A stretch of DNA of 64,000 bases from Candidatus Buchananbacteria bacterium CG10_big_fil_rev_8_21_14_0_10_33_19. GTDB lineage: Bacteria > Patescibacteriota > Patescibacteriia > 2-01-FULL-39-33. Below the pieces are notes generated by a model. The model did not search any database. It saw only the letters and a list, made by a program, of their open reading frames with translations, and had not been told where the DNA came from. Below are positions 2,488-62,130 of this stretch, piece after piece. Both the position numbers and the translations under genes were made by a program. Numbering within the stretch: the stretch's first letter is position 1; the number at the start of each line of letters is the position of its first letter. The stretch is taken from assembly GCA_002773855.1 (NCBI GenBank), contig PEZY01000004.1, forward strand, positions 6,090 to 70,089. The letters run 5' to 3'.

Positions 2488-3297
2488 TTATATTTCATAT
2501 TTGAAAATATTTGATTGAAACATTTTAACTGCTAATATCAAATATTCTTTGGCCATCTCCCAATTAATTGGTTCTAAGTAGCTACCACTTGGCCTTAATT
2601 TGCCTTGAGCATCAATACCAATCTTGGGCACAAAACACTTTATAAGTGGCTCAACTAAGTGCAAAGACTGCGGACCCAAACCACCAGCTACGATTAATTG
2701 TATATCAGGACATGAGTTATTTATAGCAGCCAAGTATGGTAATAATTTCAACCAAGACATTGGTAGGCCACGGCCCATGCTCATATCCAGTAGTACACCA
2801 TCAATTGTATCATCACCATAATCTTGAAGTTTGGTCACTAATTTAAGCGGATCGCAATCAACTAAGTTTAAGGCATGAGAATTAATTTGAATAATAACAT
2901 TAATATGCGGATAGAGTTTTTTAAATTCTCTAATATCATCTGAATTTGGCCAAATCATATCCAACTGAATGGCTCGTAAATTAGGACCAGAAAAATTAAC
3001 TACTTGAATTAGACTGTCTAGAATATCAATGCCTTGATAGTCAGCATAATGAAGAACGTTATAAGCCAAAGGATGTGTTGTAAAAATTTCAGCCACACTT
3101 TCTTTGGGTGGAAATACGCCATCAAAACGAGAGGCAAGGCCATGTAAAGTTTTATATGACATCATAACTCCCACACCCAATTGGTAAACTGGTCTATTAA
3201 CATCAATTATGTCTAAGGCTACTAACATATCATCAACCTGAGATCGATCAGTAAAATCAGTAATACCGATATAATTGGGAACTTTTAGCTTGGACAT
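2488..3297 (-). CDS. TIM-barrel protein of the phosphoribosylanthranilate-isomerase (TrpF) family. Function uncertain.
   Basis: 'NYIGITDFT' resembles the TrpF N-terminus 'KICGIT'. 'LRAIQLDM' and 'LIVAGGLGPQSL...IGIDAQGKL' resemble the TrpF 'LNAVQLHG' and 'LSGGLNPENV...VDVSSGVE' blocks. Confidence 0.4.
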   Translation of the reverse strand: MSKLKVPNYIGITDFTDRSQVDDMLVALDIIDVNRPVYQLGVGVMMSYKTLHGLASRFDGVFPPKESVAEIFTTHPLAYNVLHYADYQGIDILDSLIQVVNFSGPNLRAIQLDMIWPNSDDIREFKKLYPHINVIIQINSHALNLVDCDPLKLVTKLQDYGDDTIDGVLLDMSMGRGLPMSWLKLLPYLAAINNSCPDIQLIVAGGLGPQSLHLVEPLIKCFVPKIGIDAQGKLRPSGSYLEPINWEMAKEYLILAVKMFQSNIFKYEI

Positions 3298-3395: not shown

Positions 3396-3427
3396 AATAA
3401 AAAAGGCTACCGTTTTAAGGGTAGCCT
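3396..3427 (-). terminator. Rho-independent terminator closing the GC-rich island operon.
   Basis: GGCTACC-GTTTTAAG-GGTAGCC hairpin followed on the minus strand by a T-run. Confidence 0.55.
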
Positions 3428-3451
3428 TTGAGACCGTTGTGGTCTAAGGTA

Positions 3452-3883
3452 CTATTTTGGAGCTGTGGTTGACTCCGATTTTTCTGCACCACCTTGTCGC
3501 CGAAGTTTAGCGGCGGCAAGAGCGTCGTTGGTAGTACTTCGCCAGCTAAAACCGTTTGGCCCAACCGTCGAGATGTTACCATCTTTTCTGGTGGAGGCTT
3601 CTAACTGGAAGAACACCGATCCGTCACCACCGTGCTCCAGAATTTTCTGTAGTTGCCAGCCAGGTTGATCAGTCAAACCCTGACTAGCCGCTACATCCAA
3701 ACTGCTGGCCGGTGCACTGTAAACAGTAGCTGCCGCCTTAAGCTGATCAATTGTCGAGGTTTGATCGGCGATGGTTTTTTTCATCGCTTTGTGATTAGCC
3801 ACATAACCATGCAAAAACCAGCAAACACCAATCAGAGCTGCCACCGTGATCACTCCGCCAATAGCGCAAGCAATACATTTCAT
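3452..3883 (-). CDS. Island gene 4: small single-TM anchored protein (hypothetical).
   Basis: N-terminal TM helix 'IGGVITVAALIGVCWFL'. Ala/Gly/Ser-rich ectodomain. Sits in the GC-rich (~47-50%) block. Confidence 0.5.
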   Translation of the reverse strand: MKCIACAIGGVITVAALIGVCWFLHGYVANHKAMKKTIADQTSTIDQLKAAATVYSAPASSLDVAASQGLTDQPGWQLQKILEHGGDGSVFFQLEASTRKDGNISTVGPNGFSWRSTTNDALAAAKLRRQGGAEKSESTTAPK

Positions 3884-3895
3884 ACCAATCTCTCC

Positions 3896-5128
3896 TTAAA
3901 GTTTTTGAACTACCACAGTCAGTGGCAATCCATATTTTAGTTTCAATTCGATTTGGTGGCGTTCTATATTTTTACCACCAGTGTCAAAGTTGAGTATTGC
4001 ACACCAGCGACCATCATCGGTCTGACAAGGAATAAAACTAGGTATAGAACCACCGTTAATCCTCGCCTCTAACCTTTTGACATCATCTGGAGTCTGAAAT
4101 CGACCAAATTCGATTCGATCACCTAAATCAGAAGCAATACCTGTAGCCACCCAATCACCAGTTGTTACGGTAACTGAGTTGCTCCTTTTTTCCACTGGCT
4201 TTTTTTCAACCACCGCAGGTACTACTACTTCATTTGACGGTGCAGTCGTAATCGGCTGTTGAACCACTGGTGTAATTACTGGTGTAATTACAGACGCCGG
4301 AGTTGTAACCGTTACTGCTTTTTGAGCTGTTGACGATTTACTCATCCTGTCGACCCGCAACCAACCAATTTTTGTTTCATCATCGTAACTAGCGACTGGT
4401 TCATAAAAAACACCAGTTGCTTTATCGGTGAGTACTTCACCATCTACTAGATGAAACCATTTCGAGCCAACTTCAACTTCTTCACCACGCTTCACATCAT
4501 CTCCATCCCTAGAATAAAGGTAGGCATCAGCAGTGGCATAATAAGCCGCCGGCATTTCGGCCGAGTGCTCATTGATGACTGTGTCACGGTTAAGCGACAA
4601 GCCAACGCCCTTGATACGACTATCAATATTAGCCAGAATTTCTTCTCGCAACAATGACAGACGCATTGTATGTCGAGCTTGTGACCCAACATTAACATTC
4701 CAACATTGGAAAGTGAGAGCGACTAGCGACAAGCCGATCGCCCATTTAAACACCCAACGTTGGGGTTCTGGTGCTGTTACCACTAGATAGGTAGTACAAA
4801 ACACAATTACCAAGGAAAATATTTCCTTGGTCACCCCGCTTTGAATAGCAGCGGGATTTTTCAAGGCTACAAATATTCCGCCGGCTTGATAAAGATCATC
4901 GAAGCTCGCTCCGAAGATAATCGTCAAAACCGCCTGAACACCAACCGAAACCGCGAAACCAAGAAACAAGACTTGCGAAAAGCTCACGCTTTTACCAGCC
5001 AAGTTCTTGATCTCTTCACGATTGTAAACAGCCAAGATAATCAGCCCCGCCACCAAAGTAATCATTGGGGCGTATCTAAAAACAATGGACAACACAAATG
5101 CGAAAATAACAACTTTTTGCCAGTTCAT
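3896..5128 (-). CDS. Island gene 3: polytopic membrane protein (~5 TM) with a Pro/Thr/Val-rich linker and a C-terminal soluble domain (hypothetical).
   Basis: Hydrophobic N-terminal third. 'VITPVITPVVQQPITTAP' linker. No recognisable motif. Confidence 0.5.
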   Translation of the reverse strand: MNWQKVVIFAFVLSIVFRYAPMITLVAGLIILAVYNREEIKNLAGKSVSFSQVLFLGFAVSVGVQAVLTIIFGASFDDLYQAGGIFVALKNPAAIQSGVTKEIFSLVIVFCTTYLVVTAPEPQRWVFKWAIGLSLVALTFQCWNVNVGSQARHTMRLSLLREEILANIDSRIKGVGLSLNRDTVINEHSAEMPAAYYATADAYLYSRDGDDVKRGEEVEVGSKWFHLVDGEVLTDKATGVFYEPVASYDDETKIGWLRVDRMSKSSTAQKAVTVTTPASVITPVITPVVQQPITTAPSNEVVVPAVVEKKPVEKRSNSVTVTTGDWVATGIASDLGDRIEFGRFQTPDDVKRLEARINGGSIPSFIPCQTDDGRWCAILNFDTGGKNIERHQIELKLKYGLPLTVVVQKL

Positions 5129-5152
5129 ATCAACTCTCCTTAAAGGTTGTTG

Positions 5153-5956
5153 TCAGAATTTCTTCATTAAATTGGCAAACCACCGCAAGATATTTTCAAA
5201 TATCTCAAAGATTGATTCACCAATAAAATGGTCAGCAATTTGCTTGCCACGACTAAAGGCGCCATCTAAAGTGCCACTACTTGAATCAGTGCTAGCCGAG
5301 CCACTGGATTCTTTTCTTGGTTTTAACCAATCGGCAAATCCGAAAACCTTCTCGTGTATCTCGTCCCTCCGACCCCATAGCCAAACTGGTAGGGCGATTA
5401 CAGTTACCACTAGGGCAACCAAGATACGCCACCAACCTCGCTCATAGCGAGGTAGGAGTTTATCTTCTTTGATTCGAGAATCATTTTGCTGGATTGGCTC
5501 AACACCGATAATCCCCTTAGACAAATAATTAATCACCTGACCAACTGAAGAAACAGAATCATGTGTACTATCTGTCACTAAGGCTTTGATACCTTGCTCA
5601 ACCTGCTCCCAGTCAACTTGAGGAGTTGGCGGCCCGTAAGTAATGGCAGAGATAATCAGTACCAGTGCTAGCACCACCCAAGTATTACCCGGGATGTTGC
5701 TTTTACTAAGCACCCTCCAAAAGCCACCACCACGAATCCAATTGCCAATAGACACTCCTGTCCAATCTGAAACTGCTGGTACAAGAATGGCTGCCCAAAT
5801 AAGCAGTGCCACTCCCCACAACAATATCATTTCAAAGCCAAAGTTTACCCAGGGTGCTTCTCGCATACCCATGAGTGGATATTCCAAACACAAAGTAAAT
5901 GCAAAGGCAACCACTCCAACCAGGAAACAAATCACAGATTTAAGTAGAATATTCAT
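5153..5956 (-). CDS. Island gene 2: 4-TM membrane protein with a Ser-rich cytoplasmic tail (hypothetical).
   Basis: Four hydrophobic segments. ATGA start/stop overlap with the upstream gene suggests translational coupling. Confidence 0.5.
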   Translation of the reverse strand: MNILLKSVICFLVGVVAFAFTLCLEYPLMGMREAPWVNFGFEMILLWGVALLIWAAILVPAVSDWTGVSIGNWIRGGGFWRVLSKSNIPGNTWVVLALVLIISAITYGPPTPQVDWEQVEQGIKALVTDSTHDSVSSVGQVINYLSKGIIGVEPIQQNDSRIKEDKLLPRYERGWWRILVALVVTVIALPVWLWGRRDEIHEKVFGFADWLKPRKESSGSASTDSSSGTLDGAFSRGKQIADHFIGESIFEIFENILRWFANLMKKF

Positions 5957-6438
5957 CCTCCCAATCCTTCCAATCCTTTCAGTAAATTTTTCCAGAAGCC
6001 TTGGCCGGTGTCGGGTTTGACCGATTTAAAACCAGCTGGCTTTTCGGCGGGAATTTCCCGTTGACGAATATCTGCCGGACCACCAATTATGTGGAAGCTG
6101 GCTGTCCGCTTCTTGTCGGAAAATTCTAGCGGGATAACAGCCACGCCAGAAGATTTCCAATACTTATTACTGGTAGCCTCAACGATGGCTACTTTCTTAC
6201 TTAAGACATCAACAACAAAAGAAACGTTGGCTTGCACACCATTTTTATAGGTCTGCACCAGCATTTCCCAGCCACTAACGCCTCTGGTTAAATCATCGGT
6301 AATAGCATATTCTGGTCGACAGACCAGACATACTTCCCGATCTTTAGGCAGTGGCCGTGTGCCACATACTGGGCATTTGGGAAAATTTTGTTGTTTTCCC
6401 TTCTGTGGACCAGTTTGATTACCTTGGTTTTTACCCAT
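5953..6438 (-). CDS. Island gene 1: Zn-ribbon protein (CPVCG...CLVCRP) with a C-terminal beta-rich domain (hypothetical).
   Basis: CxxC-x13-CxxC near the N-terminus. First gene of a four-gene co-directional operon. Confidence 0.5.
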   Translation of the reverse strand: MGKNQGNQTGPQKGKQQNFPKCPVCGTRPLPKDREVCLVCRPEYAITDDLTRGVSGWEMLVQTYKNGVQANVSFVVDVLSKKVAIVEATSNKYWKSSGVAVIPLEFSDKKRTASFHIIGGPADIRQREIPAEKPAGFKSVKPDTGQGFWKNLLKGLEGLGG

Positions 6439-6574
6439 TTTAAAACTCCTTTACGTCTTTTCGACGGTTATTTTGGGCCATTCAACACTATCTATATAAA
6501 ACTGCTATTTAGCAGTAAAAACAAGTTAAATTGTAAAGTTCTCAGTTCAAAATCTACTGAACTTTAACACCCTT

Positions 6575-6603
6575 ATTTTACCATATTTAATGATTTTTGT
6601 CAA
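6575..6603 (-). promoter_or_regulatory. Candidate sigma70 promoter (TTGACA-N17-TAAAAT) upstream of the island operon.
   Basis: Read on the minus strand ~140 nt upstream of the 6438 start codon. Confidence 0.3.
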
Positions 6604-6662: not shown

Positions 6663-6686
6663 CAAAAAAGTGCCAATTTAGGCACC
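6663..6686 (-). terminator. Terminator after the TrbC-like/lgt transcription unit.
   Basis: GTGCC-AATTTA-GGCAC hairpin with a T-run on the minus strand. Confidence 0.45.
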
Positions 6687-6711
6687 TCTTGATAATTAAA
6701 TTTTATAATTT

Positions 6712-7110
6712 TTATGGATTAGTAGCCGATTGACCACCAGCACCAATATTACTACCACTACCCCCGCCCACTAAGGCTTCAAAAATATAACTTAAAATAA
6801 CATAAGAACTGAAGATTATTAGAATACCCAAAACGGCCCAAATCATCATATTTTTACCCTTTTGAATCTTACTACTATCACCACCAGAAATCATCCAAGT
6901 AATACCGCCGAATATAAAGGCCACTAGTGCCAAAACCCCAGAAACACCCAAGGCTCCATTAACGACATTTTTCACCGCATCCTCTAAATTACCACCTGTG
7001 GTACCAGTTAAGGGATTTTTTAATTCCTGAGCCTGAATTAAAAATGGCAATGACATTATAGACAAAGCAAAAACAAAAGAAATAATATATTTGACTTTTT
7101 GTGACTTCAT
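6712..7110 (-). CDS. TrbC/VirB2-like pilin-type small membrane protein (signal peptide plus two TM helices, Gly-rich C-terminus).
   Basis: Architecture (cleavable signal, two hydrophobic helices, 130 aa) is typical of the VirB2/TrbC family. Assignment is by topology only. Confidence 0.35.
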   Translation of the reverse strand: MKSQKVKYIISFVFALSIMSLPFLIQAQELKNPLTGTTGGNLEDAVKNVVNGALGVSGVLALVAFIFGGITWMISGGDSSKIQKGKNMMIWAVLGILIIFSSYVILSYIFEALVGGGSGSNIGAGGQSATNP

Positions 7111-7154: not shown

Positions 7155-7955
7155 CTAACCAAATAAAAAGTTAATGGCTTTCTTTCTGACCAAAAAACTC
7201 ACTCCAAAAACAAAAATTACTATACTTACTAGCTGAGGCAATCTTAACCACCAAAAAACCGGTGTCTGATCTAGTCTAATAAATTCCATAAAAAAACGAA
7301 TCACCGAATAACCCAGTAGATATAAAATTGATACCGTGCCAGCTGGTAATTTTATTTTTTTATAAACTAAAATTAAAAATACAAACAATAATAAATTTAA
7401 TAATGACTCATACAAAAAAGTAGGTTGAAAATATAAATAATTTTCAAAACCTATTGGTCGATTAGACTTGGCAATTGGTATACCAATTGACCAATTAGTT
7501 GGCAAGCCAAATAACTCTTGATTAAAATAATTACCCCAGCGTCCAATCGCCTGCCCCAGTGGCAAAGCCACAGCAATCAAATCTACTAATTGCCAAAAAT
7601 TAAATTTGTTTTTTTTAGACCAAACAAAAACTGCCAGAGCACCGCCAATAATTGCTCCGTGAATAGCCAATCCACCCTGCCAAATTTTAAAAATCGCCGA
7701 CAAATTATTAACATAATAATCCCAATTAATAATAAATACTTCATATAATCTGGCTCCTAAAATACCACTGATTATCGACCAAGAGGCTAAATCATAAACT
7801 TGATCTACTGATATATTCTTTTGCTTGGCTAAACGTAAAATTAAAACCAAGCCAGATAAAATAGCTAAGGACATTAAAATGCCATACCAACGGATTTCGA
7901 TATAGCCTAATCTTAAAAAAACCGGATTGGGATTGTAATAATGTAGTAAATTCAT
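7155..7955 (-). CDS. lgt: Prolipoprotein diacylglyceryl transferase.
   Basis: Lgt signature 'GRWGNYFNQELFG' and conserved 'Y...H..GG' N-terminal region. Confidence 0.85.
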   Translation of the reverse strand: MNLLHYYNPNPVFLRLGYIEIRWYGILMSLAILSGLVLILRLAKQKNISVDQVYDLASWSIISGILGARLYEVFIINWDYYVNNLSAIFKIWQGGLAIHGAIIGGALAVFVWSKKNKFNFWQLVDLIAVALPLGQAIGRWGNYFNQELFGLPTNWSIGIPIAKSNRPIGFENYLYFQPTFLYESLLNLLLFVFLILVYKKIKLPAGTVSILYLLGYSVIRFFMEFIRLDQTPVFWWLRLPQLVSIVIFVFGVSFLVRKKAINFLFG

Positions 7956-21476: not shown

Positions 21477-23771
21477 TTATCTTTTAATCACTTCCAATAC
21501 TCCTCGAGAAAAATTACAGCCAACTATTCGACAATACTTACCACAGCCTCGGATACCCTTACGCTCTAATAGCGCGTTAACTTTCATAATTTTTTTTAGT
21601 TTTTCTTTTCTTAAATTGCCAATAAACCTTCGCTTAAAACACAGGGCTATATCACCAGTGGGATAGATTACCATATTCCGTTGACCAGCAAAACAACGAT
21701 ATCTTAATACTCTCTTAGGATCTAGATAATAATCTTCTATAGCTATTATATTAGCTAAAGAATTTTTTAATTTATTAGAATTATTTTTTAACCAATCAAA
21801 TAATTCTTTAGACTTTTCTATTCCTGGCCATAAATTTACCACCATTTCGTTATTAATCATATTTTTAGATTGATTAGATTCAATAATTTCATCTAATGGT
21901 TGAATAATTACGTCAACATTACCAAGATCATATAGATAATCAACCAAAGCTGGTATTTGTTTAACATTATATGAAGTAATTAAAACTCCCACCTCTAATT
22001 TAATACTACTTTTAACTACCAAATCTACGGTGCGCATCGCATTTTTAAAAGCAATCTCTGTGCCTCTGACAAAATTATGACTATCAGCCTCCAAACTATA
22101 TAAAGACACCTTTAATCTATCTAATTTTTGATTTTCTAATTCCTGAATAGTTTTTTCATTAATTAATGAACCATTGGTATTTAAAACAACCGTCTGAAAA
22201 TATTTTTTTAAATCACCAATCAATGAAAATACCAAATCTTTTTTAATTAAGGCCTCACCGCCACTTATTTCAACAAAACTTTTAGCTGGTAGGTAAGATT
22301 TTAATTGTTTGGCTACTCCTAACCACTCATCAATATTCATTTCACCATCAAAATTTGTTTTCTTCCAGATATCACAAGTCTTACATTTAAAATTACAACG
22401 AAAAGTAGTGACCAGACTAATATAATCTGGCTTATATAAATCACGCCCACTAAAATAACTAACCTCCAATAAAACTTTAGAAATTATTTTTTCTAAAAAA
22501 CCAACTTTAGAAAAATCTTTTAAACTGAGGCCAATAATTAACCAAAACAACATAACCCCAAAATAACTCGTCCACAAATAGTGATCAAAAAAACCAACAA
22601 TTAGCAGTGCCAACAAAGCCGAGACCGTAAACATATTACTAGCCTTATAGCCCGCCAACAATATCAATAGTATAAACAAGCCAAAACCAATAATTCCTAA
22701 TTCTGCTAAAATCATTAGATAAATATTATGAGCTGGTTGATAATGCCAACCAGGTGAACCCGGTCTAAAAGTCACTAAATAATTAGTGTAATTGCCCAAA
22801 CCCACACCTAATATTGGCTGAGTCAAAAAAACATCTTTAGCTTCAAACAAAGAATCTACTCTTTGTTCTATGGATTTTTCCTCTAGTCTTTCAGTATTTG
22901 ATAATCGTGTTAAAATTAACGGCTTATAAATAACAAGTAGTGGCACTAAAATTAATAACAAATAAGTAGAAATTTTAATTAAATCTAAAAATCTTTTTTT
23001 ATAAATTAATATCATCAAACAGGTGAAATAAGCAATTACTGCTGCTAGCCAAGCTGAGCGAGAAAAAGAAAAAAATAAACCCACAGTTATAAACACCAAA
23101 CTGATAGAAACCAATAACTTACGTTTATTTGTTGATTCATTTATATATAAATAAACCCCAGCCAAAAAACATATAACCAAGAAGCCACCAAAAATATTAG
23201 GGTGAGGTAAAGTACCATAGGCCCTTAGCCAACGCTGATCCAACGCCCCAACAACTGAAGAATTAATATCCAGCGGCAAATGACTAGCCACACCTAGCCA
23301 CTTGCTAGCCACTACCTGTTGAGATAAAAATTGCCACAACCCTAAAATTGATTGTAATAAACCAGCAAGTAAAAGTGACCGGAGAATAAATTTGATTTTA
23401 ATTTGAGAATTTAAAACTATAAACATTAAAACAATGCCTTCAATTAATTTTAACCACCAATAAATAGACAAATAATTATTAGTACTCCAAGCTACTGACA
23501 AAATCGAATAAAACATCACCAGGCCAATCACTATAAATACAAGTAATTTAAAGCGATCAAAAATTAATTCTTTTTTTTGTTTTAAAATATAATACATATA
23601 ATTAATAATAATCAACCAAAAAATAATTTCTATACTATAAATCAAGAAAGATCCTTCTTGCCATTTAAAGCCAAAAATAAATTGCTCTTTTAAAATCCAA
23701 ACTGTGGAAATTGGCAATAAAAATATAAACAAATAAATCAAAAATTCAATTATTTTATTTAATCTATTCAT
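21477..23771 (-). CDS. Fusion protein: N-terminal O-antigen-ligase/Wzy_C-like polytopic membrane domain plus C-terminal radical SAM domain with a SPASM-like Cys cluster.
   Basis: ~12 TM helices with the WaaL-family hallmark 'PAHNIYLMILAELG'. Then 'CNFKCKTCD' (CX3CX2C) and 'GGEAL'. C-terminal 'CFAG...C...CGKYC...GC'. Confidence 0.6.
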   Translation of the reverse strand: MNRLNKIIEFLIYLFIFLLPISTVWILKEQFIFGFKWQEGSFLIYSIEIIFWLIIINYMYYILKQKKELIFDRFKLLVFIVIGLVMFYSILSVAWSTNNYLSIYWWLKLIEGIVLMFIVLNSQIKIKFILRSLLLAGLLQSILGLWQFLSQQVVASKWLGVASHLPLDINSSVVGALDQRWLRAYGTLPHPNIFGGFLVICFLAGVYLYINESTNKRKLLVSISLVFITVGLFFSFSRSAWLAAVIAYFTCLMILIYKKRFLDLIKISTYLLLILVPLLVIYKPLILTRLSNTERLEEKSIEQRVDSLFEAKDVFLTQPILGVGLGNYTNYLVTFRPGSPGWHYQPAHNIYLMILAELGIIGFGLFILLILLAGYKASNMFTVSALLALLIVGFFDHYLWTSYFGVMLFWLIIGLSLKDFSKVGFLEKIISKVLLEVSYFSGRDLYKPDYISLVTTFRCNFKCKTCDIWKKTNFDGEMNIDEWLGVAKQLKSYLPAKSFVEISGGEALIKKDLVFSLIGDLKKYFQTVVLNTNGSLINEKTIQELENQKLDRLKVSLYSLEADSHNFVRGTEIAFKNAMRTVDLVVKSSIKLEVGVLITSYNVKQIPALVDYLYDLGNVDVIIQPLDEIIESNQSKNMINNEMVVNLWPGIEKSKELFDWLKNNSNKLKNSLANIIAIEDYYLDPKRVLRYRCFAGQRNMVIYPTGDIALCFKRRFIGNLRKEKLKKIMKVNALLERKGIRGCGKYCRIVGCNFSRGVLEVIKR

Positions 23772-62038: not shown

Positions 62039-62057
62039 ATAATAATTACTACAATAG

Positions 62058-62130
62058 TAGGCCTGGGTGGAATTGAACCGCCGACATCTACGTTATAAGC
62101 GTAGCGCTCTAACCACTGAGCTACAGGCCC
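62058..62130 (-). tRNA. tRNA-Ile (anticodon UAU). Anticodon assignment from a hand fold.
   Basis: Acceptor GGGCCTG/CAGGCCT. D-arm GCTC-AGTGGTTA-GAGC. Anticodon stem CTACG/CGTAG, loop CTTATAA. T-arm GGCGG-TTCAATT-CCACC with one C-A mismatch. Confidence 0.6.

Follow-up and report, generated by a model that had tools for sequence, protein, structure and literature searches.

Does a sharply GC-rich block of genes in an AT-rich genome mark the arrival of foreign DNA, or can it belong to the lineage that carries it? The question is raised by an operon of about 3 kb in Candidatus Buchananbacteria bacterium CG10_big_fil_rev_8_21_14_0_10_33_19, within a stretch of 64,000 nucleotides (nt) of contig PEZY01000004.1 (hereafter "the window", meaning this whole stretch). 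Its four genes, here called A, B, C and D, encode a Zn-ribbon protein and three membrane proteins, and a reading made without database searches (the sequence-only reading) had taken them for a compositionally foreign, mobile accessory module. We consider it very probable that A-D are an old, vertically inherited operon of Buchananbacteria-type Patescibacteria (Candidate Phyla Radiation) and not an island, and we lean, with less assurance, towards tying their GC excess to selection on the folding of the operon mRNA.

Composition and inheritance of the A-D operon

The GC jump that set the block apart was borne out. Positions 3452-6438 contain 45.0% GC, against a mean of 32.7% (standard deviation 1.6, maximum 36.7) over all 3-kb windows lying clear of the block (z 7.8), and the sliding-window GC and tetranucleotide analysis that had been called for at the outset returned the same block as the strongest tetranucleotide outlier of the 64 kb. 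The borders of the GC step are the first and last codons of the operon, the leader and intergenic DNA having 18-31% GC, and inside the genes all three codon positions show raised GC. At third codon positions the GC fraction (GC3) is 0.37-0.44 in A-D vs. 0.20-0.31 in all 40 of the other window open reading frames (ORFs) of at least 200 amino acids (aa). Codon choice is shifted as well, with TTA taking a share of 0.12 among Leu codons in the operon vs. 0.55 in the host, AGA 0.10 vs. 0.43 among Arg codons, and ATC 0.33 vs. 0.09 among Ile codons. The rest of the window consists of ordinary core genes (GroEL, ATP synthase, PNPase, ValRS, IMPDH, S15, pyruvate kinase (PK) and lgt). The block is not an assembly artefact or chimera, because contigs from independent assemblies (JGI, NCBI, ENA and Logan) hold the same DNA, junctions included, at 99.9-100% identity; an apparent length difference of A and B in L005 (loci carry L numbers throughout) was traced to two single-nucleotide polymorphisms that alter the gene calls.

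Related loci were recovered through homologues of C, at identities from 79% down to ~25%, and their gene assignments were confirmed by tblastn (Table 1). The relatives bear the labels Candidatus Buchananbacteria or Parcubacteria group; a GTDB scan placed close relatives in only two species representatives, one metagenome scan yielded two loci, and a further homologue search with a 31-sequence C profile added one protein. The order seen in the window recurs in L013, L016, L019, L020, L023, L024 and L025, and L010, L012, L017 and L018 show parts of it. A gene for a VirB2/TrbC-type pilin lies directly upstream of A in all nine loci that extend that far, and the pilin gene is in turn preceded by lgt in all seven that extend to it. 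D is replaced or absent in L016. In L012, 418 nt separate C from the downstream TrpF-like gene (1370-1788) and D went undetected there; it may have been lost or have become unrecognisable in that sequence.

Table 1 Gene order at related loci and folding scores of their operon genes. Scores are z values of mean local folding energy against synonymous-codon permutations, for A/B/C/D (A/B/C in L019)
Locus	Gene order	Folding z
L013	MamF-PK-small-lgt-pilin-A-B-C-D-TrpF-like	-3.6 / -4.8 / -7.6 / -2.6
L023	lgt-pilin-A-B-C-D-TrpF-like-LamG3	-2.5 / -5.7 / -6.4 / -1.7
L024	pilin-A-B-C-D-TrpF-like	
L016	lgt-pilin-A-(B fused to C)-LamG3	
L019	MamF-PK-PPDK-...-lgt-pilin-A-B-C (contig end)	-3.0 / -4.0 / -3.6
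L020	lgt-pilin-A-B-C-D'-HU	
L025/L026	GroEL-MamF-PK-PPDK-...-lgt-pilin-A-B-C-D	-3.3 / -4.0 / -2.9 / -2.5 (L025)
L017, L018	(pilin)-A-B-C-D	
L010, L012	partial, contig ends	

Sequence divergence agrees with shared descent of the operon and its surroundings, as the divergence ranks of C, the pilin, lgt and PK are broadly parallel across loci. Between the window and L013 the number of synonymous substitutions per site (dS) is at least 1 in operon genes and flanks alike, and for gene C, with 0.145 nonsynonymous substitutions per site (dN) and a dS of 1.15, the dN/dS ratio is ~0.13. The A-D proteins are under purifying selection.

The sequence-only reading had proposed a module horizontally acquired from a foreign donor, of the kind that serves in defence, abortive infection, toxin/immunity or envelope stress. 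The locus does have much in common with genomic islands of atypical GC: the step in GC, codon usage and tetranucleotides is sharp, GC3 included, and the operon is a compact, self-contained unit complete with promoter and terminator, whose four proteins are all orphans. It differs from them in being syntenic in all relatives found, in lacking mobility hallmarks and in a compositional step that is confined to coding sequence and ends exactly at the coding borders. Islands in AT-rich genomes are, moreover, seldom GC-richer than their host, as this block is. A search for the flanking direct repeats that a mobile element might have left brought up nothing beyond chance repeats of 14-23 nt; no tRNA gene is adjacent (the nearest is 30 kb off), and the called genes over ±10 kb carry no recorded mobility-related Pfam family. 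No homologue turned up in viral contigs, INPHARED phages or PLSDB plasmids, searched with C as protein and with the whole block as DNA. The typing as defence, abortive-infection or toxin/immunity system likewise found nothing to hold on to in PADLOC-DB v2, where the best hit, of the A Zn-ribbon to Cas10, had an E-value of 0.014 and B, C and D had no match. Locus, order and GC excess are instead kept down to ~25% identity in C, and dS has reached saturation in the operon and in its flanks alike. The sequence-only reading had itself named relatives with the same genes, locus and raised GC as the finding that would speak against it, and such relatives are what we recovered, L020 excepted for the GC. 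Because the relatives keep genes, locus and GC excess, we reject the foreign, mobile module, which we regard as highly improbable. The absence from the syntenic position that it led one to expect was not seen either: A-D occupy the same locus in every related contig recovered, no search aimed at empty sites having been made, and this manner of sampling is a point to be set against vertical inheritance.

The GC excess is itself an old feature of the operon. Across loci the operon has 44-57% GC and a GC3 of 0.37-0.64, on backgrounds of 31-50%, the surrounding genes having ~31% GC in the window and L013, 36-42% in L012, L016, L023 and L025, and 45-50% in L017-L020. With the single exception of L020, where it about equals its few neighbours, every locus has an operon richer in GC than the genes around it, and the gap is widest in the most AT-rich genomes. 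Such a pattern is also what one could expect if the genes had been transferred from a GC-richer donor into the ancestor of the clade and were still ameliorating, with any folding of the mRNA as a side effect; the lower operon GC3 in the window (0.37-0.44) than in L013 (0.50-0.64) is consistent with such a slow decay. Leftover donor composition is unlikely, because synonymous sites are saturated between the window and L013, having turned over at least once since the two split while the gap persists in both, and because the operon already occupied this position when the far deeper branches to L019, L020 and L025 split off. The folding excess described below, which exceeds nulls that preserve composition and codon usage, adds that leftover GC alone would be insufficient, and on these grounds we judge the ancient transfer unlikely. 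Two further candidate causes of the raised GC were set aside. The codon bias of typical highly expressed genes does not account for it, GroEL, ATP synthase alpha and beta, and PNPase having a GC3 of only 0.20-0.23, and neither does a hidden antisense gene, the antisense open frames being without positional conservation.

The operon transcript and its folding

A-D form one transcription unit, which runs from a near-consensus sigma-70 promoter through a leader and four translationally coupled genes to an intrinsic terminator (Table 2). The tight packing of four co-directional genes and the presence of their own promoter and clean terminator had been noticed from the letters alone, and both hold: A and B overlap by 4 nt (ATGA), the other gaps measure 24 and 12 nt, and the promoter matches 11 of 12 consensus positions. 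Its -35 element and extended -10 core are invariant in the window, L013, L016, L019, L020, L023 and L024. The leader opens with a hairpin at its predicted 5' end (~6572-6535) that is kept in five loci, with two pairs changed on both sides, and a terminator scan placed a second, terminator-like hairpin followed by a U-run at 6516-6501, which could be an attenuator. No Rfam 15 family was matched by the leader or operon RNA, the top hit being Phe_leader (E 0.66) on the terminator hairpin. The Shine-Dalgarno sites of the operon genes are strong, and C and D share one 12-mer ribosome-binding context, CTTTAAGGAGAG on the coding strand (5134-5148 and 3890-3904).

Table 2 Operon and neighbouring features in window coordinates
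Feature	Position	Strand	Description
TrpF-like gene	2488-3297	-	269 aa; downstream neighbour in the window, L012, L013, L023 and L024
Operon intrinsic terminator	3402-3429	-	10-bp stem (5 GC pairs), 8-nt loop, T-run
Gene D	3452-3883	-	143 aa
Gene C	3896-5128	-	410 aa
Gene B	5153-5956	-	267 aa; start overlaps A stop (ATGA)
Gene A	5953-6438	-	161 aa
AT-rich 5' leader	6439-6572	-	~130 nt; two hairpins, Shine-Dalgarno AAAGGAG
Predicted operon promoter	6575-6603	-	TTGACA-17 nt-TAAAAT, upstream TG; 11/12 consensus positions
Pilin gene terminator	6665-6690	-	separate from that of the operon
Pilin gene, VirB2/TrbC type (T4SS_pilin)	6712-7110	-	PF18895 E 2.8e-10; PF04956 E 1.1e-8
lgt (prolipoprotein diacylglyceryl transferase)	7155-7955	-	PF01790

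The mRNA of this unit is predicted to fold far more than its composition requires. All RNA statistics use one energy model and 20-40 shuffles per test. Against dinucleotide shuffles, three 900-nt sense segments of the operon gave z values of -4.3, -7.4 and -8.8, while a PK control gave -1.1. Under a stricter null that permutes synonymous codons and so keeps both the protein and its codon usage, the mean local minimum free energy had z values of -6.6 in A, -2.0 in B, -5.6 in C and -1.8 in D, whereas ten host genes treated in the same way ranged from -1.2 to +1.8. With shuffles made window by window, which keep the local composition, the operon had a mean z of -2.11, with half of the windows below -2, and in a scan of the whole 64 kb it had the lowest 3-kb mean z, -2.34 vs. 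-0.60 ± 0.31 elsewhere (minimum -1.49; Mann-Whitney p 1e-5, with a nominal n inflated by the overlap of windows). The sense strand (z -2.11) is more strongly folded than the antisense (-1.30), which points to the RNA level. The excess recurs in five further lineages (codon-permutation scores for four loci in Table 1), and PK and lgt flanking the orthologous operons are mostly near zero.

We think it somewhat more probable than its opposite that the GC excess is tied to selection on this folding. Raised GC and GC3 would then be the means, or a by-product, of selection for a heavily folded and presumably long-lived transcript, and the invariant promoter, the 5' hairpin, the strong Shine-Dalgarno sites and the clean terminator would fit a transcript that is made efficiently and lasts. 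Stabiliser hairpins at the 5' terminus are known from the ompA and aprE leaders, and the operon leader resembles these in carrying a hairpin at its very 5' end. Likewise, the arrangement of synonymous codons for excess folding has its counterpart in other cases of selection on mRNA structure in bacterial coding regions; what differs here is that one operon is concerned, with a GC shift of ~12 points that has been kept through deep divergence as the genome drifted AT-rich.

Several results tell against this link. Some genes outside the operon are over-folded too, namely the TrpF-like gene (-4.4) and LamG3 (-3.5) of L023 and lgt of L025 (6216-7085, -3.9), and the folding excess is thus not strictly limited to A-D everywhere. 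One conserved RNA fold within the C gene was considered and rejected, since the z profiles along six orthologous C genes show no correlation and RNAalifold on the C gene gave no net covariation (term +3.6). The property that is kept is that of being folded, not one particular fold, and the case for selection on folding accordingly rests on statistics rather than on covariation.

A folded RNA of 3 kb might also have a role of its own besides coding; it could, for instance, serve as a sensor or scaffold, or be packaged or exported. Folding at a mean z of about -2.1 to -2.3 across the 3 kb, more pronounced in the sense orientation and common to six lineages as a property, would suit such a dual-function transcript, as would the conserved leader hairpin. 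We nevertheless hold it to be decidedly unlikely, given the lack of conserved structure or covariation in the coding region and of any Rfam match, and given that the proteins are clearly under purifying selection. A GC excess tied to selection for a folded coding transcript stays our preferred account of the composition.

The four proteins and the pilin gene beside them

The family profiles of Pfam, NCBIfam, PADLOC-DB v2 and PHROGs were run on the window proteins and on distant orthologues (31 C members and nine B members for Pfam). Nothing significant was found for A-D or their distant orthologues in NCBIfam, PADLOC or PHROGs, nor, apart from a DZR match of one A orthologue, in Pfam, and profile searches of PDB sequences, made with a family alignment for each of the four, returned no match. 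The sequence-only reading could assign none of the four to a family, and its outline of them proves accurate: A is a Cys4 protein without a transmembrane (TM) segment, B has four TM segments, C has about five followed by a linker and a soluble end, and D has one. No paralogues of A-D were found elsewhere in the window, and no paper describing these families was found in the literature. A-D fit no known kind of system, which is not to imply that a new mechanism has been demonstrated.

Protein A, annotated at NCBI as a hypothetical protein, consists of a disordered N-terminus rich in Gly, Gln and Asn, a Cys4 Zn-ribbon (CxxC-x11-CxxC, with C22, C25, C37 and C40), a β-rich domain and a conserved C-terminal amphipathic helix (...S.W.N....G). 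C22, C37 and C40 are invariant in eight orthologues and C25 is kept in the four closest only, and the β-domain, present once in the window protein, occurs in two to three copies in distant orthologues. The ribbon resembles the N-terminal motif of DZR proteins (PF12773/PF18912): the L016 orthologue passes the Pfam DZR threshold (32.6 bits vs. a cut-off of 27.3), while A of the window stays below it (15.9 bits to DZR_2, cut-off 27). The remainder of A, that is the repeated β-domain and the amphipathic helix, is undescribed, and hhalign found no relation between this β-domain and the C-terminal domain of C. The AlphaFold2 model of A, built on a four-sequence alignment, is poor (predicted local distance difference test (pLDDT) 52.8). 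Having no TM segment, A is probably cytoplasmic.

Protein B carries conserved GGFW..S..N.P, YGPPTP and PRY.RGWW motifs and a C-terminal tail that is first basic and then amphipathic, and no family match was obtained in nine orthologues. In protein D the single TM segment is accompanied by a small C-terminal domain that is conserved (GGDGS.F.Q...ST....GP.G.SW). The L016 locus encodes B and a variant C as one fused protein of 622 aa (P0015), the N-terminal part of which aligns to the B profile with an hhalign probability of 85% (E 6e-6); B and C would therefore act together, and probably touch.

The model of protein C, built from 31 sequences, has a pLDDT of 80.7. About five TM helices (residues 3-144) are followed by a long helix (150-191) and then by a β-domain of SH3b-like type (195-258); beyond a Pro/Thr/Val linker that is disordered (~270-312), the protein ends in a β-sandwich (316-409), the most conserved module of the family. 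The modelled residues 195-258 superpose on the SH3b domains of NlpC/P60 peptidases, LytB and phage endolysins. C differs from those enzymes in having no catalytic domain and no Pfam SH3 match, at an identity of 12-19%, and in placing its SH3-like fold between a polytopic anchor and a Pro/Thr linker; C may bind peptidoglycan. The family is small and lineage-restricted, as it comprises 44 clusters at 50% identity among 1.8 billion representatives. Relatives of the β-sandwich (window 3896-4213) also occur as stand-alone proteins of 128-192 aa and as a tandem duplicate (P0027, P0033, P0034 and P0035), from which it would follow that the sandwich behaves as an independent module.

The adjacency of a VirB2/TrbC-like pilin gene, also proposed from the sequence alone, was confirmed by its matches to PF18895 and PF04956, so that what had been picked out as an undescribed module beside a VirB2-like pilin is indeed one, with A-D in no described family. 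VirB2-like pilins are numerous and widespread in Patescibacteria and often scattered away from virB4, and they were essential in the only species tested (PMC12102498). The VirB2/TrbC loci described there, of the monoderm MPF-FATA type IV secretion system (T4SS), share with our locus the PF18895/PF04956 pilin, here beside the operon, and do not include the A-D families. A-D and their distant orthologues had no match to the Pfam families VirB3, B4, B6, B8, PrgH/I/L and TrsD, and among the large window ORFs scanned there was no VirB4-type Pfam family; on the sequences, A-D look to be not members of a T4SS, merely neighbours of a VirB2-like gene.

As a tentative proposal, we suggest that A-D act as an envelope scaffold linked to this pilin. 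They would form a membrane-embedded complex spanning cytoplasm, membrane and wall, in which A would be docked on the cytoplasmic side by its own terminal helix or by the tail of B, the membrane core would consist of B and C, C would reach through the wall, with its SH3b domain binding the wall and its sandwich exposed, and D would add an outer element. Such a complex would tie the membrane to peptidoglycan and display a surface module, and it might serve the neighbouring pilin, either in anchoring or assembling it or in the cell-cell contact of the episymbiont with its host. Directly after the operon in L016 (6351-7364), and one gene further on in L023 (5432-6472), lies the gene for a protein that combines collagen repeats with a Laminin_G_3 (concanavalin-like) domain. 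This gene is AT-rich (GC3 0.23-0.27), unlike the operon, and the presence of the protein fits a cell-surface theme.

This functional proposal is based on domain types and gene neighbourhood, and A-D have no detectable relative of known function. The outward orientation of the SH3b domain and sandwich of C is suggested by the positive-inside rule and the Pro/Thr linker, and the sandwich itself shows weak fold matches of cupin or galectin type. Since promoter and terminator set the pilin gene apart as a transcription unit of its own, its position does not imply co-regulation with A-D, and for the window, L013 and L025 the genes recorded within 10 kb include neither VirB4 nor a coupling protein nor any other T4SS component. 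All of these count against a pilin-linked scaffold.

The same separate transcription and the same lack of a T4SS ATPase nearby would be natural if A-D formed an envelope or morphogenesis complex, for wall anchoring, division or shape, that is independent of the pilin, with their adjacency a matter of frozen gene order. VirB2-like genes are often scattered in Patescibacteria (PMC12102498), and the MamF-PK-lgt order is conserved too, local synteny being generally stable. The neighbours downstream of the operon, on the other hand, vary (TrpF-like, LamG3, HU, TPR and a 426-aa protein), while the junction of pilin and A, promoter included, is kept in nine of nine loci, and we find independence from the pilin doubtful. 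A further thought, that A-D are a domesticated phage lysis-type cassette with a holin-like membrane protein and D as a spanin-like component, draws on weak matches of D to Rz-like spanin PHROGs (E 0.015 and 0.17) and on the occurrence of SH3 domains like that of C in endolysins. With E-values that are not significant, no hydrolase domain in A-D, no viral homologue, and an operon that is core-like and syntenic, it is hardly credible.

Taken as a whole, the explanation that we favour, a vertical operon with a folded mRNA that encodes an envelope complex, stands in our judgement evenly poised between right and wrong. Its boldest form, a new envelope machine that handles a VirB2-like pilin without a canonical T4SS and whose transcript is directly selected as exceptionally folded, we place on the unlikely side.

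Other features of the window, and significance

Away from the operon, a 764-aa protein encoded at 21477-23771 on the minus strand joins a Wzy_C membrane domain of the O-antigen-ligase type to radical SAM and SPASM domains, an unusual fusion, and a tRNA-Ile with anticodon TAT (UAU) at 62057-62130, also on the minus strand, lies beside a tRNA-Val(GAC) and represents an uncommon bacterial way of reading AUA. The TrpF-like protein downstream of the operon had no Pfam or NCBIfam match.

For the scanning of genomes, the operon indicates that a sharp island of GC and codon usage can be old, vertical and core-like, and that composition alone would misfile it as a transfer or defence island. If the link between GC and folding is true, selection at the RNA level would, for one operon and over the long term, override the mutational drift of the genome, and the GC "island" would be the creation of that selection and not of gene transfer. 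For the VirB2-like pilins of Patescibacteria that lie away from virB4, A-D would be a concrete candidate partner, locked to one pilin gene across the lineage.

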